A stretch of DNA of 63,962 bases, the filler included, from Lenisia limosa (Eukaryota; Protista; Breviatea), in NCBI GenBank assembly GCA_001655205.1. It is 9 parts of 9 records of this genome, joined end to end, with 100 filler letters (N's around TTAATTAATTAA, not from the genome) between each part and the next. Parts side by side here need not be neighbours in the genome. Positions count along the whole stretch, not along the records: positions 19,823 to 23,301 come from LPNZ01007765.1; positions 23,402 to 25,678 come from LPNZ01007925.1; positions 25,779 to 41,234 come from LPNZ01008948.1; positions 41,335 to 46,822 come from LPNZ01009495.1; positions 46,923 to 49,654 come from LPNZ01001830.1; positions 49,755 to 55,498 come from LPNZ01011034.1; positions 55,599 to 62,200 come from LPNZ01008663.1; positions 62,301 to 63,962 come from LPNZ01001374.1; 1 more part is not named here. The stretch is one strand, 5' to 3'. The translations under genes were made by a program, and so were the position numbers. Below the pieces are notes generated by a model. That model was not told the DNA's origin and did not search any database. It worked only from the letters and a program-made list of their open reading frames with translations. Positions within the stretch are counted from its first letter, which is position 1, and every line of letters begins with the position of its first letter. Below are positions 19,823 through 63,725 of this stretch, in pieces.

Positions 19823-22800
19823 AGCTTCAGTCAGCTTTTCAAAGACGGCCGGGGTGCCTTGGTGGGGTTGGAGGAAGTCGGTGATCTGTGGAACAAAGTG
19901 AGTCTGGAAGACTTTTAAACAAGACAAAAAAAGGAAAGAAGTGATCTTTTTTTTTTTATTGTTTTAAAAAAAGTGTAAGGAATCAGTTGATCTGTGGAAA
20001 AAAGTTTCAGGAAGGGAGTGGAAAAGGATAACATGCTATTAACTTCTCGATTTCCATGATCAACATTTTCGTCATGACCAGATCTTTAACACAATAGTAT
20101 CGGATGAATACCCATAAGCCTAGAAAAAGGATGGACAGACGGAACATATTATGGTACTGCAAGAATTGACACTGAGGATATTCAAGTTCAACCACCCCAC
20201 CAACTATGACAAACAAGTGTCAAACAAAGAAGAAGCAAAATGGGATTATGAAGTGGACAAATAAGGAAGGAAGTTGGTTATCAATGCAAAAAAAAGTGTC
20301 AGGAGGGAAGTTGTTCTTTTTTTAAACAATACAAGTATGGAAGTACGTAAGTGGAAACATACTAGAACTTCACTTTCCGTTCCAATAAAGACTGAACTCA
20401 GAATAAATCCTCCAAAAATAAAAACCGAAAGTGAAGCCTAGCATTCACCATCGTCATCATCATTATCATCACCATCAAGAGAGGAAGTACCATGATGATC
20501 CCTATAGTCCCACCAGAGCGTGATAATCTTGCTGAAGGGGGTGGATGAGAGAGAAAAGAGCCACCGCGGCCGGCTCTATGAGATCCTCGGTTAGCGGTCG
20601 GAGCAGGACCATGTTCAGGACCTCTCCCAGGAAGTGCTGGAGTGGGAGGAGGCGAGTAAAAAGTGTGATTATTTTGAATGCAGATTAAAATGGAAAATAT
20701 GAAACAAAAAAAGAAGCCCAAAATAAATTAATTTGAAACAAAAAAAATAAAACCCAAGAATCACTGTTGGCTGACACCTCGCTCCAGAATACGGCAAAAT
20801 TTCCCGATAAATCATAGATTTAGAGTAACTGGGATAAGTCTTCATCGATTTTCCTTGATACATCGCAAAGCAAATCAGTCCAGACTTATCCTGGCCACTG
20901 TATATCACCCAAAAACAAATAAAGAAAGAAATAGTGCACCCACTTTTAATGCAGCTAAAAGAAGGGGTGCTTCTTGCTTGCACTGTCGTGTGAAGTACCT
21001 ACGATATGAAACACTAATCAAAGTAGCGCTTCACGTTTGGCCCACCGAAATAAACTGTTTGTATCTGGCATCAACAGCTTTCTGCGTGCCTCCCCAGCAT
21101 ATGGAGAATAGTAAAATATATAGATAATTTATTGTAAAATATTAAAGCGTGATGGTGTGGACGGCTTCAGCCAGATACACCCTTATTTCTCATCTCTAAT
21201 CATAATTCATTCACCCCCCCCCCCNNNNNNNNNNNNNNNNNNNNNNNNNNNNNNNNNNNNNNNNNNNNNNNNNNNNNNNNNNNNNNNNNNNNNNNNNNNN
21301 NNNNNNNNNNNNNNNNNNNNTTCACAGAAGTTGCGTACTGGTTTGGTCAGATAATGGGGTAGGGGTAATGATTCACTTCGTTTCGAAAAAAGACTGAATT
21401 TCTCGATAAATCCTCAAAAACTAGATTTATTTCCATCCGACGTGAAACCCTAGATGGAAGGAAGTAAAACGAAGGAAATTTCGATGAAGAATATTGCCGT
21501 AAAGGTATTAATCACGAACCGAATAATCTGAAACTCCAAACAAACTAACAATAAAATAAGCAATAACAAACACGAAGCACATGCTAAACCACAAAAATCA
21601 GATGGGTGGGAGGGGGAGTAAAAGAGGAAAATTTATAAAACAAAAAAAAAATAACACAAATCAACTCTGTTGGCTGAAAACACACGAGGTTTGATAGCAA
21701 CANNNNNNNNNNNNNNNNNNNNNNNNNNNNNNNNNNNNNNNNNNNNNNNNNNNNNNNNNNNNNNNNGGGGGATTTTGGATAGAGATTAGATGAGTTTGGT
21801 AGACATTGGTGAAATGTCACCAGTAAGACTTCACTACGGTTCCGAAAATACTGGTTAAATATCGATAGTTTTCGAGGATTTATCGAAATATTTAGTATTT
21901 TTCGAATCGAAGTGAAGCCCAAGTCACCAGCTCCAAAAATAATCCTCCCACGGGCTTGGCAGAGAATGTCCGTTAAAATACCCAAGAGTTCCGGCTGCAT
22001 CTCCACCATTCTAGTGAAATAAAAATACGGTACCATTCCTAAGGAATAAATTATACCGTAACATTCTTGAGAAAAATAAATAATAAAAGGTACCATTCTA
22101 GCGAAATAATAATTATACTGTATTCTTATTATGATGGGGAGGCACGCAGAAAGTTGTGTACACGCAGTTTTAAGGCAAATGATTGGGTGAATTAATACTA
22201 AGCTTTAATCCATCATCACACCGTGTATATGTTAAACAGGCCGGGATGTCTTGAGCGTTTTCCTTGAGAAATCACAGAGCAAATCGGTCAAGACTTATCC
22301 CGGCCACTGTATACTACATGAAATTTGCTTTCACCTGCTTTATTATTATTTTTTTGTTCAAATAAATTTTTAGTCACAAAAGCGGTCACTTACTGTGCAG
22401 GGTAGATTTCGGCGACAAAGGACACGAGTCCGAAGAAGGTTCCTGCTAACGCGGGGTATTCGAGAATGTCACTGGAAACTAGGGGGGGGGGGNNNNNNNN
22501 NNNNNNNNNNNNNNNNNNNNNNNNNNNNNNNNNNNNNNNNNNNNNNNNNNNNNNNNNNNNNNNNNNNNNNNNNNNNNNNNNNNNNNNNNNNNNNNNNNNN
22601 NNNNNNNNNNNNNNNNNNNNNNNNNNNNNNNNNNNNNNNNNNNNNNNNNNNNNNNNNNNNNNNNNNNNNNNNNNNCACAGGAGGGGGAAATGGAAATTTA
22701 GGATACCCTCAAAAAAATAACACAAAAAGAGCAAAAAAAAAAAAGATAAAAAGAGATACAAAGACAAAGAAAAAACAAAAAACAAAACAACAAACCCACC

Positions 22801-23301
22801 CAGGGGGAACACAAGGTTGAGACCGAAGAAGACCACTTCAGCAATTGTGTCTGCTGTTCCATCTTTCTTCACAAATATCTGGGGTGTGGTAAGAGGGTTA
22901 TGAGAGAAACACGGGGTAATTTGCTTTATGGGATACCTATGTAAACAAAGAAAGGCGTGGCGTTTCATATAGCCACACCGTATTGAAATCCCTATGCAAT
23001 ATTTTGTTTCCTTTGATTTCTAATGTACAGTGGCCGGGATGTCGATATTCTTTGGGAAACTAGAGCAAATCGGTCAAGACTTCTCCCGGTTACGTCACCA
23101 TGATATTATTTCTCGTTTTCTTTTTTTAAAAAAAAACAAAAACAAAAAAACATTAAAAACAACAACAACAAAAACAAAAAAACATTAAAAACAACAACAA
23201 CAAAAACAAACCAAAAAAGACGGCTCGTTCACTGACCTCATTATCGCCGAAATCTAAGAAGTCTCGCGAGACAATGCATTGGAGCATCGAAAGAATTGCC
23301 A
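19823..23301 (-). CDS. XPO4: Exportin-4 (C-terminal fragment), multi-exon, truncated at both scaffold ends
   Basis: Exons read AILSMLQCIVSRDFLDFGDNE; TIAEVVFFGLN; SSDILEYPALAGTFFGLVSFVAEIYPAQ|MVEMQPELL; HFLGEVLNMVLLRPLTEDLIEPAAVALFSLIHPLQQDYHAL|ITDFLQPHQGTPAVFEKLTEA. These are collinear with recalled XPO4 (LSKEFIDFSD; DVVLYGVNL..MSQDLLKFPTLCNQYYKLITFICEIFPE; HFLKLVFDML...AGEAFYTLVCLHQAEY). Confidence 0.88.
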
Positions 23302-23401
23302 NNNNNNNNNNNNNNNNNNNNNNNNNNNNNNNNNNNNNNNNNNNNTTAATTAATTAANNNNNNNNNNNNNNNNNNNNNNNNNNNNNNNNNNNNNNNNNNN
23401 N

Positions 23402-25678
23402 ATCCCATCACTCCAGCGTAGGGGGGAGGTGAAGATGATGGAGGTAAGGACGAAAAAGTAGGATAGAAAAACTCCTCATAATCAACTGTTTTAGTATAAA
23501 AACACAGGAGGGTTGAAAACAACAACAAAAAACAAAACACAAAAAAAAAACAGGCTAGTCGCTTCCGAAAACAACACTGACGACTCCGGGAGGGGNNNNN
23601 NNNNNNNNNNNNNNNNNNNNNNNNNNNNNNNNNNNNNNNNNNNNNNNNNNNNNNNNNNNNNNNNNNNNNNNNNNNNNNNNNNNNNNNNNNNNNNNNNNNN
23701 NNNNNNNNNNNNNNNNNNNNNNNAGGTGACTTCGGAGTTTTCGGTTTCTTCGGTCGGGATTCGGTAAAATGGCGATCGTTTGTGATCTGAGATCGCGTGC
23801 GTGGACGTGGCTTGACGGCAACAGCCCGGCGCGGCTTACCAAGCGGAATCGTCGGAAGCTTCTTCTTCTTCGGCCTTTCCTTGGTGACCAGGGGCGATAA
23901 GGGCTCGGGGAACGGTTTGAGTGACGGAGTGATGGGGCGCGACGGCGGGGGAGAACTGGACCGAAGTTTCGACACAGTTTTTCGTGGGGGTGAAAAAGAT
24001 GTCAGCGGCTTCAGCATCCGTAATTTGGTGGCGAGATTGGGCGGTGGCGGGTCAACATGGGGGATCCTTCGGACGAATAGCATTTCAAGACAAGGAATGT
24101 GATGGTGGATTTCAGGCACCGTGAGAACCTCAGAAACCGCTTCAATTGGTCGGACCACTTTCGGTGCTAGTACGTCAAGGAGGCTCAAGTCCATCTGCCT
24201 GTCACGTGACAGCGGCTGCGCCGGCGGCGGTCGTATCTTGCATGGGCGCTCCTGTAGTTTTGGGGTAATTGTGAACAGTGGTGGCCCCGGGGAGACTTCA
24301 GGGGACCGGAGCAATCGGGAACGAGGCTCGGCGGGTGGCTGGATGGTGAGGGTTTGGGAAATGTGGAAATAGGGTGTTTTAAAACACAGTGAAACACAAC
24401 CAAACTTAATGTATATTGCATCATTTATCATATGATAATATGTATTCAGGTCATTTTATTCGCATATTATTTATTCAGAATTATCTTTTCGCGCATGAAG
24501 TATCTGGCCGAAGCCGTCCACACAACAAGTGTGATATATCACGCTTCTCAGAGAATTGGATAATAGAATATGATGTATATAGTCATTCACTCAATCTTTT
24601 GCTTTACAACTCGTTACACACACTGCTTGACCCCCAACGGAGGCATAGTAATTTGTTTATGGTATCCCTATGTATTTATTTGTTTCCCTAGATTTCTCAT
24701 GTATCATATATTCTTTCTCTTGTTAAAAAACAAACCATTATGATTAGAAACAACAAAAACAGTCCACCTACTGGAGAATTGGAGTGTGAAGGAGGCGGAG
24801 GTGGTGCACTGGGCAAGTTACCAATGGCGTAGTGAGAAGGCGAATAGGCTGCCCGAATGTGATCGTCTTTTGAGTCGGGCGGCGAGGCTGGAAAATGAGA
24901 TGGGGTGACTTTTCTGCTTGGAGAGTGGCTGAATATGGGGGGGGGGGGNNNNNNNNNNNNNNNNNNNNNNNNNNNNNNNNNNNNNNNNNNNNNNNNNNNN
25001 NNNNNNNNNNNNNNNNNNNNNNNNNNNNNNNNNNNNNNNNNNNNNNTCACCCAATCATTTGTCTTACAACTCCTATACACAGCTTTCTTTCTGCCAAAAA
25101 GGCTACATTGTCTCATTGAGGGGTGGCTGGAGTCTTTGACCCCCTCGCCCTCCACCAAAAAACCCCACCCTAACGATGAGTCAGGATAACAATACCTTAG
25201 GTTATGGTATCCTACGGAGTCCTTATTTCTCATTGCTACATACAGTGACCGGGATAAGACTTGACCAATTTTACTTGGGAAATCACACAGCAAATCGGTC
25301 AAGACTTATCCCGGTCACTGTATAGCTATAGTGTATATATCTCATTTCTACATATCATCTACAGTGCCAGGATAAGTCTTGACCGATTTGCTATGTGATC
25401 AGGTCAAGACTTCCCGGTCACTGTATATCATATACTATGTATACTAGCCTCGGCAACCCTAGATATATTATATACTATGTGGAGCTTCACTTCGGTTCAA
25501 AAAAAGACTAAATTTCTCGATAAATCCTCGAAAACTATCGATATTTTACCGGTATTTTTCGAACCGAAATGAAGTCCTTATTATATAAGTACCACAACCC
25601 ACGTGGAAGGGGCTCGAACGGGAGCGCAGTGAAATCCAGCACGGGGGCGTCGGGAATTGGCTCGAAGGCCTGGAGTTG
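23402..25678 (-). CDS. Uncharacterised protein fragment with long Pro/Lys/Arg-rich exon
   Basis: Phase-compatible exons QLQAFEPIPDAPVLDFTALPFEPLPRG|YCYPDSSLGWGFLVEGEG..., plus a ~610-nt open exon (~24340-23724). No recognisable domain. Confidence 0.55.
25243..25320. mobile_element. MITE family B (~78 bp, Tc1/mariner-pogo type). Other copies: 20823-20900, 22237-22309, 23028-23093, 25362-25423, 39117-39148 (partial), 39433-39512, 39785-39860, 58686-58735, 61220-61297
   Basis: TA|CAGTGACCGGGATAAGACTTGACC...GGTCAAGACTTATCCCGGTCACTG|TA. TIRs are ~24 bp and a TA flank occurs on both sides in five complete copies. CAGT termini with TA duplication are the established Tc1/mariner-superfamily signature. 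Confidence 0.9.
25482..25577. mobile_element. MITE family A (~95 bp). Other copies: 21371-21424 (partial), 21827-21920, 32036-32096 (into gap), 33462-33556, 41534-41626, 43403-43480, 55767-55860, 56230-56273 and 56495-56545 (partial); variants at 57118-57210 and 58547-58633
   Basis: TIRs gggcttcacttcggttcgaaaaa / tttttcgaaccgaartgaagccc around a conserved spacer (gactgaatttctcgataaatcctcgaaaactatcgata). Flanked by TA/TTA in several copies. GGG termini with a TWA-like target suggest PIF/Harbinger (Tourist-like), which is an inference. Confidence 0.88.
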
Positions 25679-25891
25679 NNNNNNNNNNNNNNNNNNNNNN
25701 NNNNNNNNNNNNNNNNNNNNNNTTAATTAATTAANNNNNNNNNNNNNNNNNNNNNNNNNNNNNNNNNNNNNNNNNNNNGCACTCTTATTCTCATAATTAC
25801 AACTGTACCTTTTTATTGTGAGAATACATCAGGGTAATAATCATACTGGAAGAGAGGGGGTGGTAGGCCTATAGACAATTGTTTGTCCCTC

Positions 25892-26006
25892 TTACCATTA
25901 GTAATGACATCATCAACGAGTTTCCTCAAGTCGCCAAAGGACGCCTTGTTTCGAACTTGCATAAGTCGAGTCATCAGGACACTATGGAAACAGATTGCTT
26001 CAGCCT
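25892..26006 (-). CDS. Isolated exon of an unidentified gene at scaffold start
   Basis: caacag|AEAICFHSVLMTRLMQVRNKASFGDLRKLVDDVITN|gtaag: good splice signals and an open frame; no domain recognised. Confidence 0.4.
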
Positions 26007-26409
26007 GTTGGTCAGCTTATTGCTGTGAACACGGAATTTAGGTGGTATGCCAGAAGCTAGTCAAACGACAGGTACTCAAAGCAAATATTGTAATTTCTTT
26101 ATGGGGGGAGGACAAGAGCGGTACTCTTGATTTCCAGGAGGGAGGGCTGTGATTGCGTGTGTGATAAAGGGAGTTGATTTCAGAGAGAAGTCAAAAGCAA
26201 ACAGAACAGCAAAAGAGGAAATGAGTAGGTGAATGTTATGATACATACATGTACATGTACATACGTGTTTGACACTATATACATATGTATGTCTGTATAT
26301 AGTTTTGAGGAAAACACCAAAGAGCGGGAATAAAGCAAAAGGGGACGTGGGCTAAGTGCCTGATTTGTTTTTATATTTTCCTTTTACAGTTTCCCCTAAT
26401 TCCTTTCTA

Positions 26410-29060: not shown

Positions 29061-29229
29061 GCAAGTTCGTTACAATGTTTTTCTTAACTTTTTTTTAAAA
29101 CTGTTTTTCATCCGCTGTAAGGTAGCACTTGGCCTAAGCCGTTAAGAGTAAACAACAATACAAAGATAAAAAAAAGTGGAAGAATGGCAATACCATCATA
29201 AAAACACTGTCAACTACTTGACAATCCAA

Positions 29230-32200
29230 ATGTAAAAAAAAGTTATCTGTGGCAAGTAAATCTCGCGACCTACCATATAAGGGCAATATGAGTTGGATGC
29301 AAGAATGACGTGAAGAGCATGGCTAGGTTTATGATCCTCTGGAGCAATTGACAGGAACATCATTGCTGTCGCACAAAACATATCAGAACAACATGCTTTT
29401 AGGACTTGGGGTGAACTCTAGATCGGTCAGGAATGTAGTTTTAGTATAAAGCAACAGGTACAGTCAGGTTTAGTAAAAGCCAACAGCCAAATTTAATTAA
29501 CTTGCAACAATCATTATTTAAAAAAAACCCAACGCAAGGAATCCAATAATCTAACATGATGTTCAATAAAATTATATTCTCGCAATAACTGCAAAATGTT
29601 GCCTCACTTCCTACATTCAAATCCATAATTTTAAAATAATGTTTTAACACAATATGGCTAATATTATAATATAACAAAAATAGCATATTTTTGTGCTTGA
29701 ACAGATTGCAAAACAAGCTAAAAAAAAACCTCGCTTGCTTTATTTGAAATCCACAACCGTCAAACCAAGTTCCGTCGTATAGCCTGATGACCAAGTCCTC
29801 GGTCTCCTCGGTCTATAGTCGAAGACTCCCTTCGACTGAGCCCAGTTACTGTCAGCTCAATCGGAATTTCCTAGGGGGATGAGGGAATGTTTGAAGGTAG
29901 GGAGGGATAAGGTGAGGGATAGGGGGATGTATGTTGATATTCGGGGTGGGAGAGAGAAAGGTGTGAAGATTTAAACGAAGAACAGGTTCAGGCGAGACTG
30001 GATAGCGGGAAGGGGAGTACTGTGATGAAACAAAAATCCCCAAAATTAACAGGTTCGGTGACAAAGAAATAAACCTCCCGACTTTGAAAATATCCATAAA
30101 TGGTCGGAGGGGTGGCCTTTTCTTAGGGGAAGCTTCCGACAGCAAACTACTGGAATAAGGGGTGGATAGAACAATAACTGGGTGACGACTTTAGGCAAAA
30201 TTGTAAACAATTTAAGCCCTTCTGTGGATAAAAAAAACCAGTATGCTCCACGTCCCACGAGAGCTGTTGAAAGAGGGCAATTGGATCAGTGGGCTGATTT
30301 GGCGTGACGGGGGACACAAACTCCACAAAGCGGCGAACAATTTGCCTAATTGAGTAACACTAACCTTCCTATTATGACACCGTTCATAGAGTTGCAAAGG
30401 AATTGTACATTATAGTAATATATTCTTGCACACCAGCAGCCGCCCTCATACATCCAATAGCCCTGGTTAACTTCTGGTAATTTGTCTCGGCAGATCTTCA
30501 GGGCGGAGTACTCGATAAAACAGGCTTTTTTAAGGAACATGGACTCACTAAGAAGCGCCTTCTGGGTACCAATTTGCTGGAAAGAATGGGTAAATCAAGA
30601 TGCTTCCAAAATTTGAATCACACAAAATGTGTTGGCATATTTATAATGTCTGTCAAATGAGAGAAAAAACCAGGTAGAATTTTGTCAGTCCAATAAAAAT
30701 ATCTCTGATAAGAGAGATGGCCTCGACCAAAAGATGAGAACCTGCTTTGATTTCTCATACTTATCATACAAACAAAAAAAAAGCAAGAGAGTATTTGAAT
30801 TAAAAAATGAAAAATATGGGTCCTCAAAGCTCCTGACAGCATTCAAAATTCACCGGACACATCAAAACTCACGGACAGCTTGAAGTTGACCCCTTGTATG
30901 GGTCAACAGTAGTGTTTAATACAAAACTGGGTCGACAGATATATCCCCTTGGGGCCCGAGGCCTTTTTTGAAAAACCCCATTTTTGTACTTTGTATCATA
31001 ACTAAACGCAATTTTATCCAAAAACAATAATTAAAACAGATTTAAAGAGGAAATTGTATGTAGGTTTTGAATATATTCAACATTTCTGTCACTCTGTCAA
31101 AACAAACAAAATAATAAAAAAAAGAAAATGACCGCTTAATGTTCCCCAATTTTTTTTTTTTAACTTTGTGCAAGTGTCAAAAATCTGTGAATTTGGTCTC
31201 CCGGGGGTGGCTTTTGCCTTTTCACGGGAATTTTTGTCGATTATAACGGTTTTGATTGTTTGTGGCAGTTTAAGGGCCGCAAACGGGTAGCCAAGTGATT
31301 TAATTTCGCCTTGAGCCAAGAATATGTAAAAATCGCATTCTATTCTGTGATTAAAATTACTTTCGAAAATAACAAGAAAATGAAGTTTAAAAGTACTTTT
31401 ATTGGGAAAATTCAAGCTGTCCGGGAGTTTTGATGTGTCCGGAGATTTTGANNNNNNNNNNCTGGTTATTTTTGGCAGTTTAAGGGCCGCAAACGGGTAG
31501 CCAAGTGACTTAATTTGGGTTTGAGTCAAGAATATGTAAAAATCGCATTCCATCCTGTGATTATGACTGAAATTACCTTCGAAAATAACATGAAAATGAA
31601 GTTTATAGACTTAGGGAAAATTTAAGCTGTCCGGGAGTTTTGATGTGTCCGGAGATTTTGAATGATGTCCGGAGCTTTGACTANNNNNNNNNNCTCCATC
31701 CAGATGGAATAAAAATAACAAGAACTCGATTTCGACAGAGGCCTTTTTTTCCAAAAAAAAAAAATACAAATCAAATAAAACAAGATCGTGGTATTTTTGT
31801 GTACAAACAAGATAAATGATTAAACAAGATCAAGAATTGACACCAACCTTGGTCGGATCTTTGAAATCGGTGTGTCCCTAAAAGTGTAAATAAACACAAA
31901 AAAAAGTAGTAGAAAAAAACGGTTAGGGAGAGAGGGAGTGTGGGGGCTTAAAATAATTCGATGTATTAACTAGGACAAAAAAATATTCAAATAAAGGGCC
32001 TAGTTTTCTTCTCTTGGATTGGGCGAATGGGGGTGGGGCTTCACTTCGGTTCGAAAAAAGACTGAATTTCTCGATAAATCCTCGAAAACTATCGANNNNN
32101 NNNNNNNNNNNNNNNNNNNNNNNNNNNNNNNNNNNNNNNNNNNNNNNNNNNNNNNNNNNNNNNNNNNNNNNNNNNNNNNNNNNNNNNNNNNNNNNNNNNN

Positions 32201-35200
32201 NNNNNNNNNNNNNNNNNNNNNNNNNNNNNNNNCGGAAATCCGCGTGAACCATGTGCCCAATTGATCTGCCTGAAAAGGGACCGAAGTAAAATTGGACAAT
32301 TTATGAATAAAGAAAAAAGCCCAAAATCAACTCTGTTGGCTTACAACACACAATGGTTGATAAAACAGACAAAACCCAGGCCAGTCGCTTCTGCAGCACC
32401 ACATCCCATCACGTAAAAGGAACGTTTACGAAACAAAACACATAAAACAGAACCCTATCTTACACCCTTGAATAAACTGATAACCTCAACCATAAGCTAA
32501 TCTATCACCCTCACCATAAGCTTATCATCCTGTTTTCTATTCCACTCGGTTAGTGTATGGGTCATGAAGTGGTTGAAGACTGGGCTGAAGTACTGACAAG
32601 GTGAGTTGGTGAAGCAGATGTTATTCAGAAAACTCAAACACCTATCATATCATGCCAAAATAAAGAAGAATGCTTTCATAAAATCATAATTAGGACTTCA
32701 CACGGTCCCCCCCCCCCCCNNNNNNNNNNNNNNNNNNNNNNNNNNNNNNNNNNNNNNNNNNNNNNNNNNNNNNNNNNNNNNNNNNNNNNNNNNNNNNNNN
32801 NNNNNNNNNNNNNNNNNNNNNNNNNNNNNNNNNNNNNNNNNNNNNNNNTAGGGAAGTCATTAATAATAAATCCTGGCTTACAGGAGCGACTGTTACATTA
32901 CCCTTGGTGCTCGCAGTGATAATGGTCACCACCTTCTCCAGCATCTGGACAGGTGATTGTTTGACAGTAAAGTCTCTATTGAAACTAGGATTTTAAGATC
33001 CTATTAAATTTGCAGTAAAGTCTCTATTGAAACGAGGATTATAAAGATCTGGTCTTATTTACAGTAAAGTCTCTACTGAGACTACGATTAAAAAGATTCG
33101 ACAGTTGAATTGTGCAAAGAAAACACCCGGGGTGAGAGCGAGGGATAGATTGTATTCAAATGATAAAAGATATTACATGTATGTAATACACTAGCCATTT
33201 CTTATGTTTCTAGACCACCTCTACTTCAATACCACCTTATAACCACAAACCATCCAACAAATACTTCCCCTTTTTTACTCCCTCCTCTGTTATTAATTAC
33301 CTTCCCCACCTCCCACTCTATTGCACCCCCCCCCCTACTGCAGGCCATAGACTCGGCAACATTGAGTTGTTGAGGGAATTGGCAACAAACATGTTGATGA
33401 TGGTCCTAGATGGTGAGAGCTATGGGGTAATGCTAGGTAAGGATAGTGAGAGTAATGGGTAGAGCTTCACTTCGGTTCTAAAAAAGACTGAATTTCTCGA
33501 TAAATCTTCAAAAATTATCAATATTGTCCCGGTATTTTTCGAACCAAATTAAGCCCTAGTGATGGGGTACTACTAGGTGAGTATTCGGATTATGCATTGG
33601 TTTGAAGTACTAGGTAGACAACAGTTTTGATGTATAAGTGGATGAAATTAATTGATACATTTACACTGTACAATTAACTGGAATGAAGCTAGAACTCCAT
33701 TTTATACAATTAGAACTTAATATCCTTAAAATTTATGGTAATAATATGCATAATATATCGATATATGATATGACACAATATACACAGACATACACACATT
33801 TTTAGCTAAGTATACGAAACTATTATTAGACGCTTAAGCTTCGACCAGACACCATCTTGTTATATTTTTCATCTCCAGGTAGTCTTATTGTATCCCCACA
33901 AACATAACCAGGATGTAAGGGACGCAGTGGTGAGTTTTCGAGAGACGATCCAGTACCGCAAGGATTACATTCAGAACTTCGCTGTGTTTCAAAGGCAAGT
34001 GACTGATGGTTAAAAACAACGGCACAATAATAGTAAAAAAAAACGAAAACAGAAAAAGCAGAATCAACACATTAAAGTGGTAGTCTGCCTAGTTTTTCTT
34101 AATTTTAACTCCTGGGGTGGTAGGAAGATCGGAATTCAACTTTCTTCGTCTTTTCAGCACAACCCTTGCCTCGTTTGTTCAAGCAAGACAATACAGTGAT
34201 CAGGTGAGGGGGTTTTGATGTGGGGGTTGGGGCCTCGAGTATGTTCACAAGCACCATCATTGCAAATTTTAACAACATATTATAGCAAAATACTCCTCTA
34301 TTGTTGTTGGAGTCAGAACCATGGTTGAGTCAGCTAATTTCGTTGCTCTTTAAACTCTCGGTTGCTTCCATCAATACACAAAGACCTCGGTTAAATATAC
34401 TATTGATCAACTAAATATTTTGATTTGTTTTCGAAAATAATATTGTGAGAATTATGTTAATAATATGAATATAATGAGTGCACTATCAAGATGTTTCTTC
34501 AATATTATATTCTCATATGGTGCGCCCCATCGCCTTTCTTTTAGTTTTGATGTTTTCCAGATTTATAGATGAAGGTAATTAAGGTGTAATAAGGGTAGCA
34601 AAGGAGAGAGAGCAGCATAAAGTGAACTAGTTTTTGAGATCTCAGTGAACATCTGGATCAAAGTGTCCTGACGTAATAGTTCTGAGATAATCTAGACACT
34701 GAAAGCTAAGGATGTAATAAATCTGCAGCTTTGATCATCCTAAGGATCACCAAGGTTTTTTTCCCCCTTGAAGTCTATCGCTTGGGCTCTTTGATCATAC
34801 AGTGCTTACCAGGGATAAGCAATAAAACTTGGATCGCAATATGATTTCAATAGTTGGATTTGGCCCTCTCTCTCTCTTCTTCTCTGCTTTTCTTTGGTTT
34901 AAGAACAGCTTTGACTGAATCTTGCAGTGATCTGATGAGGGTCGAGAATTTCCTTTAAATCTCCAACAAAAATAGATAATAATTATCTTTGTATCAATCC
35001 AGAGTATTCCCAACTCCCCCAACTGCGTAATAATGGTGTGGATAAGCGGAGGCAGCAGACGAAACAGTTTCTGTAGCAATGAGATATGATTCGAATCAAT
35101 TCCTCTTGCGATTTTGGCTTGCTTCAACCCCCCCCCCCTACTTTTTCTGAGCTTTGATTGATCAGTTGCTTCAGTTCAGGGAAATATTCATCCTTCATAG

Positions 35201-46765: not shown

Positions 46766-47016
46766 GTGAGTGATGTGTGATATAGCATGATATGGTTCTG
46801 GAACAGAGGGGGGGGGGGCGGANNNNNNNNNNNNNNNNNNNNNNNNNNNNNNNNNNNNNNNNNNNNTTAATTAATTAANNNNNNNNNNNNNNNNNNNNNN
46901 NNNNNNNNNNNNNNNNNNNNNNTCCCCCAAGAGTTTCGAGCCACAGTATCAACAGCTCAGCAATAAAAACTTCTCCATGACAATAATATATCTCTATTGC
47001 AATAACCCCCCACCAG

Positions 47017-49371
47017 AGATTTGGGACACATTATGGAGTGGAGCAACGCTCGAGGCCTCCGGGCTCTGTTTGGACTTATTGATGCCGGGGTCACCAGGAT
47101 CCTTGACGCCACTTTGGTCACTCCCGAGCTTGCTGCTGATTTGGGTGGGGGGCATCTGTAATCATTAGAGCTGGTTTTGGGCTTCTGCATCCATAAATTC
47201 GTCATTGAAATTTCCTTCGTCATCTGTTTGTTCACGTTATTTGTTTGCCGATTGTCCGTTCAATCAATTGACTACTCAGGAATGGTTGAAGCCTACCTTA
47301 CACGACGTCTTGTTTTCGCGCTTATTTGGGCCCTTTCTGGTGACTGCCCAACATCGAGTCGACAGCATCTGTCCGCCTTTATTGCCTCGGCTACCACCAT
47401 CCCCGTTCCTCATGGGGACGTCGTCGGTATGCTACTGGCTTATGGGAGGAACAACGGTGCTCTGTTAACATCCCCCATTCTCATATTTGCATCATCTTAA
47501 CTCTGTTAACATCCCCCATTCTCATATTTGCATCATCTTAACTCACATTGGTGTCTCTATTTATTTTTGGTCTCCCCAGAATTCATAAATGCATATATTT
47601 ATCATTTCAAAAATGTAGCTACACTCCCTCTCTAAACTTTCCCTGTTAATTTTTGCAGATTATGACGTGTCTCTTGAGGGAGATTGGGTTGAATGGATAT
47701 CTAAGGTGGGGGCTCAAATCGTTTTTAAATGTTCTATCCTTTTAGGGTATTGTCTCACCCCCCCCCCCTCTTAGGTTCCTGTTAACGATATTGAAGCCTC
47801 CCGAGTTGCTGCGAGTGATTTAGTCGTGCCCACCATTGACACACTGAGGTGACCGGGCTTCTAAGTTTCAAGGTGACAATAAAATAAGGGTGTATGAATA
47901 GTTTTCAAGAGCATATCGAATATCTTGCCTCTTTGTTATTTTTGTTTCGTCAATTTTCCAATTTACCCCCCCCCCCTCAGACACCAGGAAGTAGTGGTGT
48001 CATGGCTACGGTCAAGAGCCCCGGTCATTCTCTGCGGACCCCCAGGATCGGGTAAATCTATGACACTTACTGACGTGCTTAACACGCTGCCTGATACCGA
48101 CTTGGTGAGAGGGGATGTGGCAAACAATGAACATTGTATACTATTTGAACACTGCATACTGTTTAACATTTATTCTAATTTAGTGGTGGTTGTGGGGGTT
48201 AACAAATACATGTTTGTTTTGTTACTAATTTGAAGGGCAGGGAGTGTAGGTATGGGGGGTTTTGGTGGGTGGGGGTTAACACTGATTAGGCAATGTCTCT
48301 ACTTCGGGCACTATCCTTGTTTCTATGTCCTTATCCAATAATGAATGTGAACTTTCATTATCACAGGAGACCTTGCAATCGATAGCTACAATTCCCCTTT
48401 AAACTAATGGCAAAATAGGTGACGGTCAACTTCAGTAGCACTACCACTCCCCGCCATGTTCTCCAGACGCTTCTTCAGGTACGAGGCCTCAACTGGTGTT
48501 CTCTAGGTTTATTAATATGGCTTTCTAATGGGCTAAAAACGAACGAATTGCCACCCAAATCCTACTATTGCTAGTTTTTCGGTCTTTTGGACGGTGCAGA
48601 AGCCGTGCTCAATGATTTCTGTTTTCATTCCAGTTGAATAACAGCGTATTGATATGTAACGATTGGGTGAATCAACATTACTATAATCAAAGTCCTCCGT
48701 ATTGGGTTTTAGCTTTTCCAATAACTAATTAAGTTTGGTCGTCCTTTTCACTTTGTATCTGTGGCAGCAACCTGAATGTTGTCGCTCCAGAGTCTAGTAG
48801 TAAACCCATTGCCTTATCTCACACCCCTCCAGTACTGTGAGGTTATCAAGACGGTTCGCGGTACTGTGATGCGACCTTTGAACGCCGGCAGGGTGGGGGT
48901 GGGGGCTTGTATTTTGCATAGGTTTTCTTCATCAAAATTTCCTTCATTTCAAATTTTCCACTGTGGAGTGATGTGATACACAGAAGCGATTGTTTTGTTG
49001 TTCTCAGCCGTTGTGTGTTGATAGCCTAGATCTGATTTTTGTTTTTGTTTTGTTTTTGTTTTATGAATTGTCTAATTTCACGCCCCCCCCCCCCAATAAC
49101 CGGTTTAGTGGCTGGTCTTGTTCTGTGATGAGGTGAACCTTCCTGCCGAAGACGCCTATGGCACTCAGACGGTTATTCAGCTCATAAGGTGGGTGTAAAC
49201 AAAGCAAGCCATTATTATGTTGTAAGAGGGTAAAGAAAGGCATTATCATGTTGGTCATGGGGTATAATACAATTCTGCACTTATAAGCCCTTACCCCACA
49301 GGTCTATGACAGAACTTGGCGGTTATTGGAATGCCAAGGACCTGACTTGGGTTTCACTCGACCGCATTCAG
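47017..49371 (+). CDS. DYNC1H1: Cytoplasmic dynein-1 heavy chain, AAA2 extension to AAA3 fragment
   Basis: HIMEWSNARGLRALF; RRLVFALIWALSGD; DYDVSLEGDWVEWISK|VPVNDIEASRVAASDLVVPTIDTLR|HQEVVVSWLRSRAPVILCGPPGSGKSMTL; NFSSTTTP; WLVLFCDEVNLPAEDAYGTQTVI; WVSLDRIQ. The CGPPGSGK Walker A, the WLVLFCDE Walker B and the surrounding sequence match recalled cytoplasmic dynein-1. Confidence 0.93.
47461..47542. repeat. Direct tandem duplication, 2 x 41 bp, intronic
   Basis: tctgttaacatcccccattctcatatttgcatcatcttaac twice, identical. Confidence 0.95.
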
Positions 49372-54450: not shown

Positions 54451-54479
54451 CGTTTCCTAGCAACTTAGCTGGCCTTCGG

Positions 54480-55612: not shown

Positions 55613-58600
55613 TTCCATACTGCAACCCGTGCCGTGGACACCATCAACGCCTCGATCCAGGACATTTCGGAGAGGACTCAGAACGCCATGGCCACAGCCG
55701 AGGTCAATGTGTCGGTTCTGAAGGAGTCTGTTTCTACTATCAAGGTACTGCGAAGGGATAAGATTAGGGCTTCACTTCGGTTCGAATAAAGACTGAATCT
55801 CGATAAATCCTTGAAAACTATCGATATTTTACCGGTATTTTTCGAACCGAAATGAAGCCTTATGTATTATTTCTGTTCAAAGAGTTTTCGTTTTTGCCCC
55901 CCCCCCCCATCATTAAATAANNNNNNNNNNNNNNNNNNNNNNNNNNNNNNNNNNNNNNNNNNNNNNNNNNNNNNNNNNNNNNNNNNNNNNNNNNNNNNNN
56001 NNNNNNNNNNNNNNNCCCAACTTACCCCCGTAGAACGAACAGCGCGTTCTTCAGAACTCTCTGTCGGAAGAGGAAAACCGGCTAGAAGCTGCAACTAAGG
56101 CCCGGAAGGGCTATATGAGGTAGGGGGGGTGGGGGTGATGAGAAATTGTGATGTTAATCAAGGCATGAATTTTTGTACTCCAACTACCCAGTCCCTAGGG
56201 TTACATATCTATATTATCGAGGACTTATCTAGAATTCAGTCTTTTTTTTTTTTTTGAAACCGAAGTGAAGCCCAAGGTAGTAGTCCTCATATCACTACTC
56301 ATCATTTGACCTCTCAGCCTGGCACGTAGAATCATGGCTGTGTATCTGAGCAATCTCCATGGTCTCAGTGAGTGGCCAACATGCCAATGGGACCTCCGTT
56401 CTGTTGTTGAGGTGCGTCACTATTACCCACTCTGGTTCTTGCCTTATGACATGAAACGTCTTTTTTTTGTTATCCTTATTATCCTATTTCCCCTAATTCT
56501 TCGAAAATTATCGATATTCTACCTGTATTTTTCGAACCGAAGCTCCCCATCACTCACCACCAATAGGAAGCAGTGAGCAACGTGAAGGCCACTAAGCCCA
56601 TTGACAACACCGCTCAAGAGANNNNNNNNNNNNNNNNNNNNNNNNNNNNNNNNNNNNNNNNNNNNNNNNNNNNNNNNNNNNNNNNNNNNNNNNNNNNNNN
56701 NNNNNNNNNNNNNNNNNNNNNNNNNNNNNNNNNNNNNNNNNNNNNNNNNNNNNNNNNNNAAGTGAACGGGATGATAAATCATACAGCAAATCAGTTAGAC
56801 TTTTCCTGGTCACTATATACATGTATACTGTACATCAATATAGTATGATATGATATGAAATAAACTGTTGTTTTTTTCGTTTTTTCCAGAGTTGATTTTG
56901 AGGGTTTGTTCATTACTTTTCCACCATGTTGTAAGGGATGTTGATGAAGCTTGAACAATATACACGCTAGAGCAGTTTTTCTCATTTTGCCACACATTCC
57001 TCACCCCTCCAGCGCTTGATGACTTTACGCCAAGACAACACCAACGCCGTGATACATGGTGGGGGTCTGTGTGGTGGATGGGCGGCTTCATAACGTCCAT
57101 TAGGGGCTTATCATTAGGATTTCCCTACGGTCCAAAAAGACTGGTAAACTATTGATATTTATCGAAGGTTTATCGAGGAATTCTGTCTTTTTTGGGACCG
57201 CAGGGAAGCCTTGGTTATCATAGTAGTATTTGGTTAGGGGAGTCATGCAGAAAGCACTGGAGAGCTCTCAACACGAACGAACGGCTTTACTCTTTCAGTC
57301 TAACCACTTAGCCATTTCGAGGTCGCTTACATTCGCTCAACACTCTGCGCTTCTCTGGAACGGTTGGTGGTCGTTTAACACTCAAGAGCTACCTTAGGAA
57401 TTACATCAATGCAATACCGCCCCCGCCCCTTCATAAAAAAAACTGTCTAAAAGCCCTCTTTGGGTTGTAAGTTCACCCAGTTCGTCTCAGTTTGATTCCA
57501 TTCCCTCTTCCACCAAATAGTATCACTAAATCCTAGGGCTCCGTGCAATTAATTGGAATATCAATTTCAAAATTTGAAGTCGGACATATTGTAATGAGAA
57601 CCCTCAGACACTTTAATTTCTAATTTTGTCAATTAATTACCTCAAAATAACTTAATTTGCATGGAGCCCTACAAAATACATATCTCTAGTTCATTTTTAT
57701 TTTTATTGTTGAAATCCTGCTTCATGCTGCCCTCTCACGCCATCTCTTTGATCCTGCCCAGCAATCTTGCTGAGACCCGCCCTTAACAAGCCCAGCAATC
57801 GCCCAACTTATCCGCTCACACACCACCACCCCCCAGGATGTCTCAACGTCCTCATAGCCAACAACGACTGTGACCCGCGCATTCGTCTCATTATGACGTC
57901 CCTTGATTACCAGGTGTGAAGGGCGGTCATGATAAATCTATTTGGGCTGCGAATTTATGTCGGTCGGAAAAGACCAGCCAAGTGTCGCGTTTTATCGAGG
58001 CAAAGTGTCAATATTTATCAGGACTCGGTCTTTTTCAGACCAAGGGAAGCCCCATTGGAGGCATTTGGGGGGAGGGATCACTATCTATTTGTTTTTTTTT
58101 TTGAGCGAATGATTAATATCACGCTTAAAGTATTAGGGTAGACGTTAGTGAATAACCTGGTTCTTTTGTTATATTTTTCCAATTGGTGTTAACAACCAGG
58201 GCTCCGACGTATTAAGAAGTCGGTTTATTTAATAAAGATATCCTTACTGTGTTTTCACTTATCAGGATGAAAATTGGCTCATTGAAACTGAAAAAGACCT
58301 CCTTGAAGTGACCCCCAACATGCCTGTTTTCAATATTGGTGGGGGGGGGGGGCGATCAACCTCAAAAATAATAATGTATGTTGAAGGCCTTGGTTTCACT
58401 TGGGATCTCCTTTGACATTATTCAGACCTGCCCCAGCCTGAAGGAACGTCGTATCTTACACCGTCTCGATGGAAAGCCCTGTGGTTTGTTTGGTTTTAAA
58501 GGCTTGTTGGGATACGGCTTTTTAGACCATTTTTGGCCTGATTTTAGGGATTCCCTTCGGTCCCAAAAAGACTGAATTTCTCGATATATTGAGATTTAAA

Positions 58601-61600
58601 CGGTCTTTTACAGACCAGACCGTAGGGAAGCCAAGCCCAAGGTTAACTTCATTTCTCCCCAGTTGTCACTTTTCATCCTATTATACAGGGACCGGGAAAT
58701 CAAATAGCAAATCGGTCAAGACTTATCCCGGTCACCTTACTTTTCATCGCAATTTGAGTTATTAACTGTTTTCATCTTTGCAGCCAACTCATGGCATTGC
58801 CGGCCCTGAGTAGCCTAATGCCCCAATTGCCCCTGAGAGTCGTACAATGGGCCGATATCGCGGCGTCTACCCAGCCCCTTCTTTGCCCCCTCATGGTTTG
58901 TCTACCTCCTTATTTCCCTCCTATCACTTCACTCACTCATATCAGTCCTAACACTCTGAGCACCCCTCTCTCCTTTCTTTCATACTCTGTGCAACCTCCT
59001 GTCTGTTTCAAAAACAGTCGCCAATAATTAGGGCTCCGTGCAATTAATTGGAAAAATATTTGAAAATTTTGAAGTGCGACATATTGTAATGTAAACTCAA
59101 TTTCAGACAGTTTAATTTCAATTTGTATGTTCAAAAAATTAGTTGCACGGTCCTGCTAAAAAGCATACATCTCTACCTTCTTTTTCTTCTACATACAAAT
59201 CACGAAACCAAACCTGACCTCTTCAGGGAGTGCCGACGTCAGTTGAGACAGTCTACCGTCTCTGTCTCTACATCATTATCCGCCCTGATACTTTCGGCGC
59301 TTGTGTGGAGGTGAGGGAGAGGCCTATTAATTGTCGCACGCTGATGGGACGCTGCAGAAGCGACTGGCCTGGGTGNNNNNNNNNNNNNNNNNNNNNNNNN
59401 NNNNNNNNNNNNNNNNNNNNNNNNNNNNNNNNNNNNNNNNNNNNNNNNNNNNNNNNNNNNNNNNNNNNNNNNNNNNNNNNNNNNNNNNNNNNNNNNNNNN
59501 NNNNNNNNNNNNNNNNNNNNNNNNNNNNNNNATCCTAAATATCTATATTTACCCAGTCTTTTTCGGACTGTATGGAAGCCCCTGATATCCTCGCATTTAC
59601 CGATCCCCCTCAGACCTTAGCACGAGAAGTATTCGGTCCGTGTTCGATCGAGCATCCGATTGTGGAACTTGGCGACCTCATCACTAAGGCCGGAAGCTCT
59701 TCGCCCGTCCTCGTGCTCTCCCCTGACTGTTCGCCGCTTGTTTTGCGTTTATAATAATATCTCCCACGGCCTGTCATTAACCATTACCTCTCCGCGCTGC
59801 AGCATAGAATATCCATGTCTATACCCCCCCCCCCCANNNNNNNNNNNNNNNNNNNNNNNNNNNNNNNNNNNNNNNNNNNNNNNNNNNNNNNNNNNNNNNN
59901 NNNNNNNNNNNNNNNNNNNNNNNNNNNNNNNNNNNNNNNNNNNNNNNNNCCTTTTGTTTTTATTTCATGAATCATCCCCTAGGCGGAAGCTGCACAGACG
60001 CCGCCGCAGCTGTTCGACACATCGCCCGCCACCGCGGAACCATCCAGCGTCTCCACACTGTTGCGGTCAATAACGGCACTTTCCCGGACCAGGCGCTGAG
60101 CGTGGTCGAGGAGGCTGCAGATAGGGGTTTGGGGGTGTGGGACTATACGGGATTGTTTTCAAACAAGAGAAATAATATTTGAGATGATTAGAAACCTAGA
60201 AAAACAAATAGATACATAGGGATTATCCCTTTAGGATGGTGGTGCGTCATTGACGACATTGACCGAGCCCCCCAAAACACCCTGGAGAAATTTGCGCAGA
60301 GTGTAGCTGAAATACCTGCTGGTGGGAAGGGCAGTGGTATCTGTGAATCCGTGAGGTTTTTATGTATACTGTCGAAATAAATGAGTTTATGCAGTCTTTA
60401 TTATGTGTGGTAAACATACCTAGTTTATGCAGTCTTTATTATGTGTGGTAAACATACCTAGTTTATGCAGTCTTTATATGTGTGGTAAACATACCTAGCT
60501 TATGCAGTCTTTATTATGTGTGGTAAACATACCTATTTTTTTAAAATGGGCTTAATTGTTTGTAATATACACCTAGTTTTTAAAAAAATATTACATGAGC
60601 TTCACGTTTGTGCTTACCCCCTGCAGCGCGGAAGGATGGGGAGTTCCGCCTGATTATGACTTCGAGAGCCAGCGCCAAGCTCCCCCTGCTACTTTGTTGG
60701 TTCTTATCTCGATTCAGCACTTTGGAATATCGCCTTTTGTTGACAGCAATATTCAAATTCGTACTTTCCTTATAAGTCAGTCCATCCACTCACACTGACC
60801 TTTTAAGGCAGTTCCTCAGTGCGGGCAATGTGGACCCAGCCAGCCACTTTCAGGGGTGCTGCCATTTCGTAGGAATGGGTATTTTTTGTTTGATATTTTT
60901 TGGGATTTTGTCTCAGGTATTGTTGTAGTATTTTACCATGCGGTGCTGCTACAGAAGCGACAGGCTTGGGTTTTGTTAGCTTTGNNNNNNNNNNNNNNNN
61001 NNNNNNNNNNNNNNNNNNNNNNNNNNNNNNNNNNNNNNNNNNNNNNNNNNNNNNNNNNNNNNNNNNNNNNNNNNNNNNNNNNNNNGTATCCCCCCCAGAC
61101 ACCTGCGTAGTTTGCGTCATGCATATGACACAGGGCCCAGCTCCACCTTAAATCTGCCTCCAATCTCCCTCCTCCCGGGAGACAGGCCAGGTGGGGTAGT
61201 AAATAAAGGATATGTTATACAGTGACAGGGATAAGTTTTGACCGATTTTCTACGTAATTTCCCCTGTATAATCGGTCAAGACTTATCCCGGTCACTGTAT
61301 ATATTTTGATGAAGAAGACTGGTGTAGAGGTTCTAATCACTGAACTTCAAAAACACTTTTTCCTTTGTCATTATCCTTTATCTTTCGCTCTATCCTTCCT
61401 TCCTTTTGTCCCTTCTCGTTCGTCCTTCCCCTAATCCCTTGTCCCTTCTCCCTTGACTCTGTGCAACATTAATAATTTTTGAGATTTTATTGCGATCATG
61501 GATCTTTTCTCTTTTCCTACCCAAACGAAGCTCTGACCCCCCAGCATGGAAGCGTCTCGTTGCCACCCTCGGTGTCATGCACGCTGTTTGTCGTACACGT

Positions 61601-61795: not shown

Positions 61796-62410
61796 GTGGG
61801 GGGGGGGNNNNNNNNNNNNNNNNNNNNNNNNNNNNNNNNNNNNNNNNNNNNNNNNNNNNNNNNNNNNNNNNNNNNNNNNNNNNTCTAAAAAACAAACTGA
61901 TTAATATTAGACTGTCTCATGAACATGGTGTGCTTATATTATTTCATGCATTTCTACATCTACTCACTCTCCAGGGAATCATACAGCTCTACTTCCCCTT
62001 CATATTGCGTCATATCCAAAATGTAAGTGGTTCTCTCGTGTCGATGAGAGGTATTAAAATGGCTACAATGGGGATGGTGGACTGTTCATAATACGGAATT
62101 ATACAGATGATAATATGATCATTAGTGTATGTAAACAGATAGATAATGCTGACCTATTTGGCCTGATATACCGATTTGTCCTGAGCCTTTTTTTTTTTTT
62201 NNNNNNNNNNNNNNNNNNNNNNNNNNNNNNNNNNNNNNNNNNNNTTAATTAATTAANNNNNNNNNNNNNNNNNNNNNNNNNNNNNNNNNNNNNNNNNNNN
62301 TTATGTTTGGCATGTTTGGTATTTTGGGGGTTTCAGTGGTACTAAACCACGGCCGATATATCCTGCTTTTTGAGCATCTGTGATAAATTTTCCATTTTTA
62401 CTCGGCATAG

Positions 62411-63725
62411 GTGCCAGTAGTATCATCAGATGAGACGGAAGGTACCGTAAGCCCTAGCGTCCTCACATTCGATGCCGGAGACTGGAATGTCGACAAGACT
62501 GTGACTGTCACTGGAATTGTATCTTGGGATGGGCGTGACCAAGCTAATTGTGTGTTTTTTTTTGAGCTGAACGCAGGAGTCCGTACTGTTTTCAACCCTT
62601 TTGTATTTCACAATGTTGAGTTTATTTTTGGGTTTTGGTTTTATAAATGTTCCATTTTATCCCTTCTGAAGTGCCGGCCCTTGATAGCCTCGTCTACATT
62701 TGACTGATTGAAATGGCCAAAACCTTGGGGAAAAACTATCTTAGGCCCTCTTTAGAGTATAATCTGACCCCCCACCCCCAGGATGATAGTCTTGCAGATG
62801 AATCAGTGGAATACACAGTGCAAGTCGGCCCAACCACATCCGCTGATGCCAACTTCAACTCACTCCCTTTGGTCACTAAGTGGGCGGAAGGAGTTCAGTT
62901 CAGTTCAGTTCATTTTGTTGCTTATGCTTCCAATCTTCCTAAGTGCTTTTACTACACCATTAGTATTTTCTAATTAATCATACTAATATCTCATTATCAC
63001 GTGATGGTGCGTTAAACTTCGGCTTGTTTATTTCCCATTATTTGTTCTCCCTCCCTTTGACTCACTCTCAAGAACTCTGGTGAACATCGATGACGAAACT
63101 GCCGAGATAAATCTTGCTTTTACGTGGGGGGGTAGATCTTAAGTTTCTTCTGGGGACCCCATAGTTGCCTAAGTTGTCCTTAATCTCCCAATACTCCCTA
63201 ATTACAACCTGGATTGTAATTTGACAAATGCGTTGTTTATGGTGGACCTGTGTATTTGATAAGACCAGTTTTTCTTCTTTTTTTTTTCATCTTAAACAAG
63301 GCTGAATTTCCAGGTCTCCAGCCCCCCACGTTACCTCGGAAAACGGCACGTTTGTCATTACCTTCTCCGTTCAGCTCACCAGCCAGCCGTCAGCCTCAGT
63401 TATCATTGATGGTGCGGGGGATATGGAAATGATCTATTTTGTATTCTTCTTAATATCATTTTGATTGTCTCATGCCTTGGTGTCCCCTTGTTGTTTTTCT
63501 CCTCAGGCGATTCTCGATTATTGAAATAGAGTTCATTCTGGGTGTTTGTTTCATACATTCCAATTTTACCCAACAGAGTTGATTTGGGTTTTTTTCGTTT
63601 CATAAATTTTCCAATTTTACCCACCCCCAGTTGCCACTACAAAACCGACCGAAGCCACTCCTTCCCCCGCAACCATGACTTTCACTACTGATCAATGGAA
63701 CATTCTCAAGACCGTCACAATCTCG
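62411..63725 (+). CDS. Surface/adhesin-like protein fragment with ~110-aa beta-sandwich repeats (Calx-beta/cadherin-like type seen in prokaryotic giant surface proteins), spliced
   Basis: Spliced product: VPVVSSDETEGTVSPSVLTFDAGDWNVDKTVTVTGI|DDSLADESVEYTVQVGPTTSADANFNSLPLVT|KTLVNIDDETAEINLAF|TSPAPHVTSENGTFVITFSVQLTSQPSASVIID|VATTKPTEATPSPATMTFTTDQWNILKTVTIS. This gives two repeats of the TEG.VSP..LTF...W....TVTV.G.DD...D motif. Confidence 0.8.

Follow-up and report, generated by a model that had tools for sequence, protein, structure and literature searches.

Introns of Lenisia limosa (Breviatea) contain copies of a short repeat, here called D. The question raised by this locus is whether D supplies the 3' splice sites of its host introns, and how it came to lie there. 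We analyzed a window of 63,962 nucleotides (nt) from assembly GCA_001655205.1, in which nine scaffolds are joined by spacers. N gaps are numerous and often start right after G- or C-runs; since many begin there, intron ends and D copies are under-assembled. A preliminary description of this DNA had reported about 17 copies of a ~140-bp unit, always in the host sense, and had proposed either a mobile element at 3' splice sites or a homogenized cis-acting splicing module. In the present analysis, D proves to be a real intronic repeat, apparently undescribed, whose strand bias is strict and whose bias toward intron ends is moderate.

A dispersed repeat family in introns

A profile of D, first built from four cited copies and rebuilt from 14, was searched across the window. 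It gave 36 matches at E≤10 and 23 at E≤0.1 (13 of the 23 are model seeds), and 14 exceeded the best score from 20 block shuffles (12.8 bits). Against the reversed window, the profile gave four matches, the highest at 4.6 bits. A 20-nt motif from the D tail was found nine times at ≤3 mismatches, against 0.04 expected. The D-specific core, which excludes the branch point, C tract, and AG, scored ≥26 in seven of the 53 acceptors modeled and ≤19 in the other 46; by this core alone, 40618, 49108, and 20637 fall in the low group, although 40618 and 49108 are still strong profile matches. D is a real dispersed repeat family, distinct from generic pyrimidine-tract sequence. The 23 matches form 20 arrays in eight genes on seven scaffolds (Table 1), which bears out the dispersal on unlinked scaffolds described previously, but shows that the earlier count was too low.

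The likeness among copies is very hard to attribute to generic intron composition or an assembly artefact. The last 15 nt of D do resemble a generic host acceptor, and matches below 13 bits overlap the shuffle range. However, the excess of the tail motif, the bimodal core scores, a GC-rich head common to six copies, and DNA contigs that run through D copies into unique flanks refute this explanation for the 14 strong copies; for these copies, polypyrimidine composition, named at the outset as a possible refutation, is excluded. At other loci in the DNA run, D is joined head-to-tail or to a second repeat, E. The summed DNA contig depth reached 14,022 in the 36.1–36.6 kb bin and about 36–40 in unique bins, a measure that does not equal copy number and shows only that the family is abundant. 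Two D patterns had no match (0 and 0) in JGI metagenome contigs, and no related loci were found there.

Complete copies span 143–149 nt (32270–32412, 36332–36478, and 48960–49108), and the unit is about 145–150 nt long. Its head is richer in GC, its middle part is TG-rich, and its tail leads into a branch-point-like hexamer and a C tract that varies. The head reaches ~9 nt beyond the unit first described: this extension occurs at 23402–23420 and is matched by the consensus of the loose ends of 69 contigs at 32412 (agreement 0.49). The stretch from hexamer to AG varies between 7 and 27 nt among copies; therefore, common descent is evident only as far as the hexamer, sometimes a few Cs more, and the AG often belongs to the host. 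The copies are mutually 65–92% alike. As noted previously, D lacks terminal inverted repeats (TIRs): P was 0.33–0.95 in the three full copies and 0.0005 in two TIR controls. No stable fold was detected (z-scores of -0.2 to +0.7 in 6/6), and a tRNA search found no tRNA in D.

An amplified intronic small RNA, such as a retroposon resembling a box C/D small nucleolar RNA (snoRNA), would also be sense-only and lie near intron ends, and two copies show a box-C-like head with a box-D-like motif ~90 nt on. However, canonical box C is absent from all six head-bearing copies, Rfam gave no match at E≤1 on 32233–36568, and most copies lack the head, which makes a snoRNA origin highly improbable.

Repeat E is T-rich, ~145 nt long, and joined to D in either order. 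The tails of D and E look alike by eye, but their homology was not demonstrated (P=0.22), and E is thus treated as an associated subunit. E copies lie in the host sense at 21456–21600, 37835–37895, 40683–40747, 48909–48959, and 63860–63962.

Orientation and position relative to splice signals

The genome in the window is that of an intron-dense eukaryote. We modeled 44 whole introns and 53 acceptors by hand from homology and open frames. The introns were 38–496 nt long (median 130, n=44), and a YYNAY-type motif lay 6–11 nt before the intron end in 37 of the 44 non-D acceptors, usually with a short C tract. On the sense strand, introns are skewed toward T (36%, with A at 27%; 23 T-runs vs 6 A-runs in 33 introns). 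Across the window, donors are weak, with GTGGG dominant (14/44) and G-runs often next to them, and acceptors carry C-runs.

All 23 D matches at E≤0.1 lie in the host sense, in all eight genes (sign test P=0.008), as the preliminary description had maintained; antisense cases occur only among chance-level matches and in one fragment of E. The host strand was assigned from homology for a cytoplasmic-type dynein heavy chain (46923–49654 scaffold, identified by Pfam and homologs) and exportin-4 (XPO4, minus strand), two gene labels that were correct from the start. RNA was the basis for the gene at 29.8–30.3 kb, and the scaffold-4 and surface-protein genes were assigned from open exon chains; weaker counts of open reading frames (ORFs) and signals were used on scaffolds 3, 5, and 8, of which scaffold 3 is the weakest. 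An abundant TIR element in the same genes lies both ways (7:4 among 11 copies, one self-overlap match being dropped; Fisher P=0.007 vs D), but it is near-symmetric and therefore no control for the T skew. The non-genic DNA, ~13 kb or 23% of called bases within hand-drawn limits, contained no D copy.

The end of an array could be determined in 17 of the 20 cases, the other three running into N gaps: nine end at an acceptor, two near one, and six in mid-intron. Among arrays in fully sequenced, modeled introns, 6/10 end ≤30 nt from the AG vs 2.4 expected (~2.5-fold, P=0.012). A 20-nt window gave P=0.001, but this counts 49108, which lies outside that window; the 30-nt figure is thus used. The D hexamer is the final branch-point-like motif in seven of the nine D acceptors. 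At 47980 and 49108, the dynein exons join without gaps relative to homologs, and six further D acceptors were placed by open frames.

Of the nine acceptors attributed to D previously, the D tail runs into seven (32270, 36332, 37103, 38255, 40618, 47980, and 63630); at 49108, the AG lies 27 nt further on in non-D sequence, and a 25-nt insertion intervenes at 20637. The claim that the repeat supplies the 3' splice site thus holds in part: more than half of the determinable arrays end at an acceptor, but others do not, and the AG is often the host's. Since the stretch between branch point and AG differs among copies, D likely supplies mainly the branch-point motif, while the AG appears to be mostly that of the host.

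A host splicing module spread or homogenized between intron 3' ends by gene conversion, and not selfish, would account for sense-only copies near acceptors and for the mosaic similarity among copies. Against this, 46/53 acceptors lack the core, copies are only 65–92% alike and often truncated, a TIR element interrupts one copy, and the fold is not conserved. We consider this module improbable, and this half of the preliminary proposal fared poorly.

Insertion junctions and competing explanations

In the two fully modeled cases, the donor in use precedes the D head by 133 nt (32545) and 67 nt (48893). Because the donors are separate from the head, D appears to have been added to pre-existing introns, and the earlier statement that it is not a classical introner is upheld. 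D could alternatively be a decayed introner, once a whole intron from GT to AG, that grew at its 5' side by insertions or duplications and lost its head. There is a GT inside the D head, several tails end in AG, the 72-nt CSE1 intron at 17837–17908 is weakly D-like from end to end (shuffle P=0.001), and Micromonas introner elements are typically sense-only repeats (PMC4540971). However, besides the distant donors, D heads are preceded by intron-like pyrimidine sequence, including in the consensus of 69 contigs, the sequence between hexamer and AG is variable, and the score of the CSE1 intron does not exceed that of non-D introns. We regard such decay as unlikely.

All truncated copies with a visible 5' side keep the tail and lack the head, including four mid-intron copies that serve no acceptor; among the matches, no head-only copy with a visible continuation was found. 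This would be the polarity expected of reverse transcription from the 3' end. The D head follows a branch-point-like motif or C-run at six of eight junctions, against a background of 8%, with the pattern and junctions picked post hoc. Direct repeats at the junctions vary in length and end at the branch-point motif in 4/5 junctions shown; the check for target-site duplications proposed earlier thus gave repeats, but none of a fixed length. One junction fuses the branch-point motif directly to the head, as seen in a check for lariat circles, and the other junctions differ.

The three head-to-tail tandems reported previously (36332–36568, 38255–38410, and 63535–63630) are real, and more exist (32413–32465, 20687–20782, and 23402–23575). 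Tandem partners rank 2, 9, 15, 16, 17, 20, and 22 of 25 by identity; as they are rarely closest relatives, most are not local duplicates. The pair at 36.3 kb is 77% alike, vs 83–89% to dispersed copies. These relationships point to repeated arrival at one site. A polarity in which the downstream copy is the younger was also considered and held in only 3/7 pairs.

Separate donors, tail-kept truncation, the junction motif, and non-sister tandems favor homology-guided insertion of an RNA-derived copy. We tentatively favor, at somewhat less than even confidence, a reading of D as a non-autonomous, likely RNA-derived mobile element that inserts at the branch-point/C-tract region of existing introns. 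D would be copied through RNA, with a borrowed reverse transcriptase starting cDNA synthesis at the RNA 3' end. Its tail may anneal to the matching branch-point/C-tract region of a target intron, which would fix strand and site and leave a direct repeat of 6–14 nt. Older D tails would make the best targets, which would account for the head-to-tail arrays. Once inserted, the tail would take over as the branch point, splicing of the intron is predicted to remove the copy as well, and the AG used afterwards would be mostly that of the host. The mobile element proposed originally is consistent with the dispersal, 5' truncation, stacked independent copies, sense-only orientation, and acceptor enrichment; however, about a third of the arrays supply no splice site.

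A number of results weigh against insertion of RNA-derived copies at branch points. The six mid-intron arrays (21606, 30023, 37287, 43595, 56925, and 62659) make up this third, and the motif-to-AG spacing is 15–18 nt in four of the nine D acceptors, outside the usual host range. Four of the 13 weaker D matches (E 0.1–10, chance level) are antisense, and the E fragment at 61303–61345 is one clear exception in orientation. D has no clean target-site duplication and no poly(A), nor is there an A-rich tail on the strand that retains its 3' end, and the D tail alignment is noisy across T-runs. A scan of 185 ORFs in the window, including 67 added to the first set that had no Pfam match, found no autonomous or longer coding partner except an unlinked RNase H match. 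In the RNA run X2 (polyA, contigs only, 26 records), no joint was found at D acceptors on 25779–41234, where missing cover is uninformative. One RNA contig (depth 4) splices out the intron 30082–29871 and passes the weak D-like tail at 30023 and a nearby AG.

The T skew of introns on the sense strand also means that selection alone could remove antisense copies. Under this alternative, D is an ordinary non-autonomous element, derived from a short interspersed element (SINE), a Helitron, or a miniature inverted-repeat transposable element (MITE). It would insert at random in strand and site; selection would then remove antisense, A-rich copies and mid-intron copies with cryptic acceptors, and keep tails able to act as a branch point. 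In addition to the skew and the A-runs on the other strand of D, the short host introns, which limit end enrichment to ~2.5-fold, the mid-intron arrays, the antisense E fragment, and the abundance of other mobile elements in these introns speak for selection. It explains most facts, but not easily the absence of D from non-genic DNA, where no selection on splicing operates. Antisense copies number 0/23, junctions lie directly after branch-point-like motifs, and D has no TIR and no tRNA or Rfam head. We judge this explanation possible but on balance unlikely. If it is correct, D is a clean but ordinary case of a repeat co-opted as a branch point.

A narrower form of the favored reading is doubtful: that D is a splice-site-homing element whose intron-derived RNA is written specifically into the branch-point region of other existing introns, replacing the host branch point and stacking head-to-tail. 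If such targeting is real, the spliceosome's own signal would be a safe harbor for a mobile element, a strategy not found in the literature searched, and the 3' splice signals of existing introns would be rewritten without the creation of introns.

Comparison with known elements and other features of the window

Introners, or introner elements, of Micromonas and introner-like elements of fungi are short non-coding repeats tied to splicing and found on the coding strand only; some families lack TIRs or target-site duplications, some carry the 3' splice site, and RNA-based spread has been proposed (PMC9860276, PMC4540971, and PMC12130899). D resembles them as a sense-only repeat without TIRs in introns of unrelated genes. 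However, introners make whole new introns in exons and are recognized by end-to-end likeness, whereas D lies inside introns with their own donor, is mostly 5'-truncated and stacked, and is mid-intron in about a third of the arrays. D does not span donor to acceptor, and the CSE1 intron is the sole weak candidate. D is introner-like in effect, but is not an introner. The sister stwintrons of Hypoxylon (PMC9024468) are likewise repeated intronic elements at a splice signal of another intron; however, they split the donor, leave as an internal intron, and carry TIRs, whereas D lies at the branch point and has none. Retrohoming of linear group II introns by partial reverse splicing offers an analogy only, in sense-strand insertion, a fixed 3' end, and a ragged 5' junction (PMC3280974); it requires a ribozyme and its own reverse transcriptase, whereas D lacks both a fold and an ORF and ends 3' at the branch point, not always at the AG. 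The comparison also drew on PMC11282704 and PMC7789003. This literature, covered in part and without the supplementary lists of introner families, described no family with insertion at the branch points of introns already in place; no counterpart of D emerged there or from the Rfam and tRNA searches, in line with the initial impression of an unrecognized family.

The absence of TIRs separates D from MITEs and other TIR transposons, and it shares 5' truncation with a retained 3' end with non-long terminal repeat (LTR) elements. An LTR or terminal-repeat retrotransposon in miniature origin, with the purine run as a polypurine tract, was rejected because inspection by eye showed no TG..CA ends and no conserved primer site. 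For Helitrons and Helentrons, no stable fold and no Rep/helicase partner were found in the window, and the ends of D are too loosely defined for motif scoring. D does not show the canonical box C of a box C/D snoRNA, and has neither the tRNA/7SL/5S head with RNA polymerase III boxes nor the A-rich tail of SINEs. Antisense Alu elements and intronic SINEs donate a pyrimidine tract and acceptor in one orientation, like D. However, these repeats take either orientation, are also intergenic, and typically give rise to new exons, whereas D abuts existing coding exons and has no tRNA, 7SL, or poly(A) part.

Introner screens that demand end-to-end likeness would miss elements of the D type. If one genome contains hundreds of copies or more, the long-debated RNA route for transposing intron sequences could be tested by junction statistics and by comparing empty with filled sites.

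Table 1. Copies of D, related fragments, and the ~95-nt TIR element in the window
Feature	Coordinates	Strand	Basis
Full D at acceptor, preceded by older D-like tail 32413-32465	32270..32412	-	120 bits; intron 32545-32270 keeps open frame; the match of 69 DNA contigs stops at 32412
Head-to-tail pair: full D 36332-36478 at acceptor, N gap interrupts second copy	36332..36568	-	98.6 + 67.3 bits; in-frame exon
5'-truncated D tail at acceptor	37103..37165	-	28.4 bits; intron 37598-37103 in open exon chain
Mid-intron D tail, 184 nt upstream of acceptor, same intron as 37103	37287..37332	-	27.7 bits
Two stacked D tails, downstream one at acceptor	38255..38393	-	20.2 + 43.7 bits; open exon chain
Weak D-like tail near acceptor; nearest AG 38593 out of frame, in-frame AG 38571	38571..38643	-	7.7 bits; frame test
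D tail at acceptor, piece of E fused upstream	40618..40747	-	38.6 bits each; open frame downstream
Old D split by TIR element (about 41536-41628); tail at probable acceptor	41442..41672	-	head 10.9, tail 3.5 bits; open frame past AG
Mid-intron D tail, about 205 nt upstream of probable acceptor	43595..43630	-	11.8 bits; 3-mismatch motif; context
D tail at dynein acceptor, intron 47849-47980	47936..47980	+	12.3 bits; gapless exon join vs dynein homologs
Full D in dynein intron 48893-49108, E-type tail before it; AG 27 nt beyond last D motif	48960..49108	+	78.5 bits; homology-supported acceptor
Two degenerate D tails, then 25-nt insertion, then XPO4 acceptor	20637..20782	-	8.6 bits; sequence; XPO4 strand
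D (21606-21702), then E; mid-intron, upstream of TIR element	21456..21702	-	65.1 + 124.6 bits
Degenerate D, then head of another D at scaffold end, with 9-nt 5' head extension	23402..23575	-	59.7 bits; extension matches 32412 loose-end consensus
Weak D-like tail in 5' third of RNA-supported intron 30082-29871	30023..30064	-	7.2 bits, inside shuffle range; open spliced frame
Mid-intron D fragment, 87 nt before probable acceptor	56886..56925	+	8.8 bits; context
D head entering N gap	59340..59375	+	21.2 bits
D head entering N gap; gap length fits full copy ending at acceptor near 61098	60937..60984	+	31.6 bits; sequence
Short D tail at acceptor, absent from preliminary description	62381..62410	+	2-mismatch motif; core score 26; open exon chain
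Mid-intron D tail, 122 nt before acceptor, intron 62519-62781	62587..62659	+	9.7 bits
Two stacked D tails, downstream one at acceptor; 14-nt direct repeat ends at branch-point motif	63522..63630	+	12.6 + 49.7 bits; open exon chain
Whole 72-nt CSE1 intron, weak D likeness, suggestive only	17837..17908	+	Pfam CAS_CSE1 positions 129 and 132; E=0.073 in intron set; score equal to non-D introns
Antisense fragment of E (43 nt) beside TIR element	61303..61345	- (host frame +)	16.6 bits, E=2e-4
~95-nt TIR element copies	25484-25578, 33464-33557, 55769-55863, 21372-21450, 21827-21918, 32040-32095, 41536-41628, 43406-43480, 56200-56270, 57120-57210, 58555-58630		

Among the neighboring genes, CSE1 was identified by the Pfam domains IBN_N, Cse1, and CAS_CSE1, which were used in place of a homolog search that gave no match. 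For the scaffold-4 gene, the homolog search had no match, and a lone candidate, a repeat protein, was judged spurious. A PDB search with two exons of the window found nothing. Intron density is very high at 13636–19722 and 46923–49654; dynein has eight modeled introns in 2.35 kb, and its exons are mostly 45–150 nt. In one intron, the acceptor and exon start are duplicated ~160 nt apart (40160–40180 and 40325–40345), a possible alternative acceptor. The RNase H match at 52804–53325 (E=0.003) has no D nearby and stands on a scaffold without host-like introns; it is likely a decayed retroelement.

The ~95-nt TIR element is abundant in introns in both orientations, with a summed DNA depth of 124,889 in the 32.0 kb bin. 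A second TIR element, ~86 nt long with flanking TA, occurs at 61216–61301, 25240–25324, 39431–39517, 39782–39865, 20817–20905, and 22241–22313, and is presumably Tc1/mariner-like. A third dispersed family of ~120 nt (41766–41884, 57528–57664, and 59023–59150) has the same orientation relative to the host in 3/3 copies. Of two small dispersed families, one lies in both orientations (21074–21109, 22122–22212, and 42300–42390), and the other pairs 24664–24736 with 60150–60223. The region 26400–28400 is multi-copy; in the DNA run (depth 50–335) it shows many variant bases, and its ORFs are broken and have no Pfam match. The remaining repeats, 959–1158 with 31241–31661, 45341–45502, 60384–60539, 37459–37584, and 47460–47544, comprise one intergenic repeat common to two scaffolds and several intronic minisatellites.

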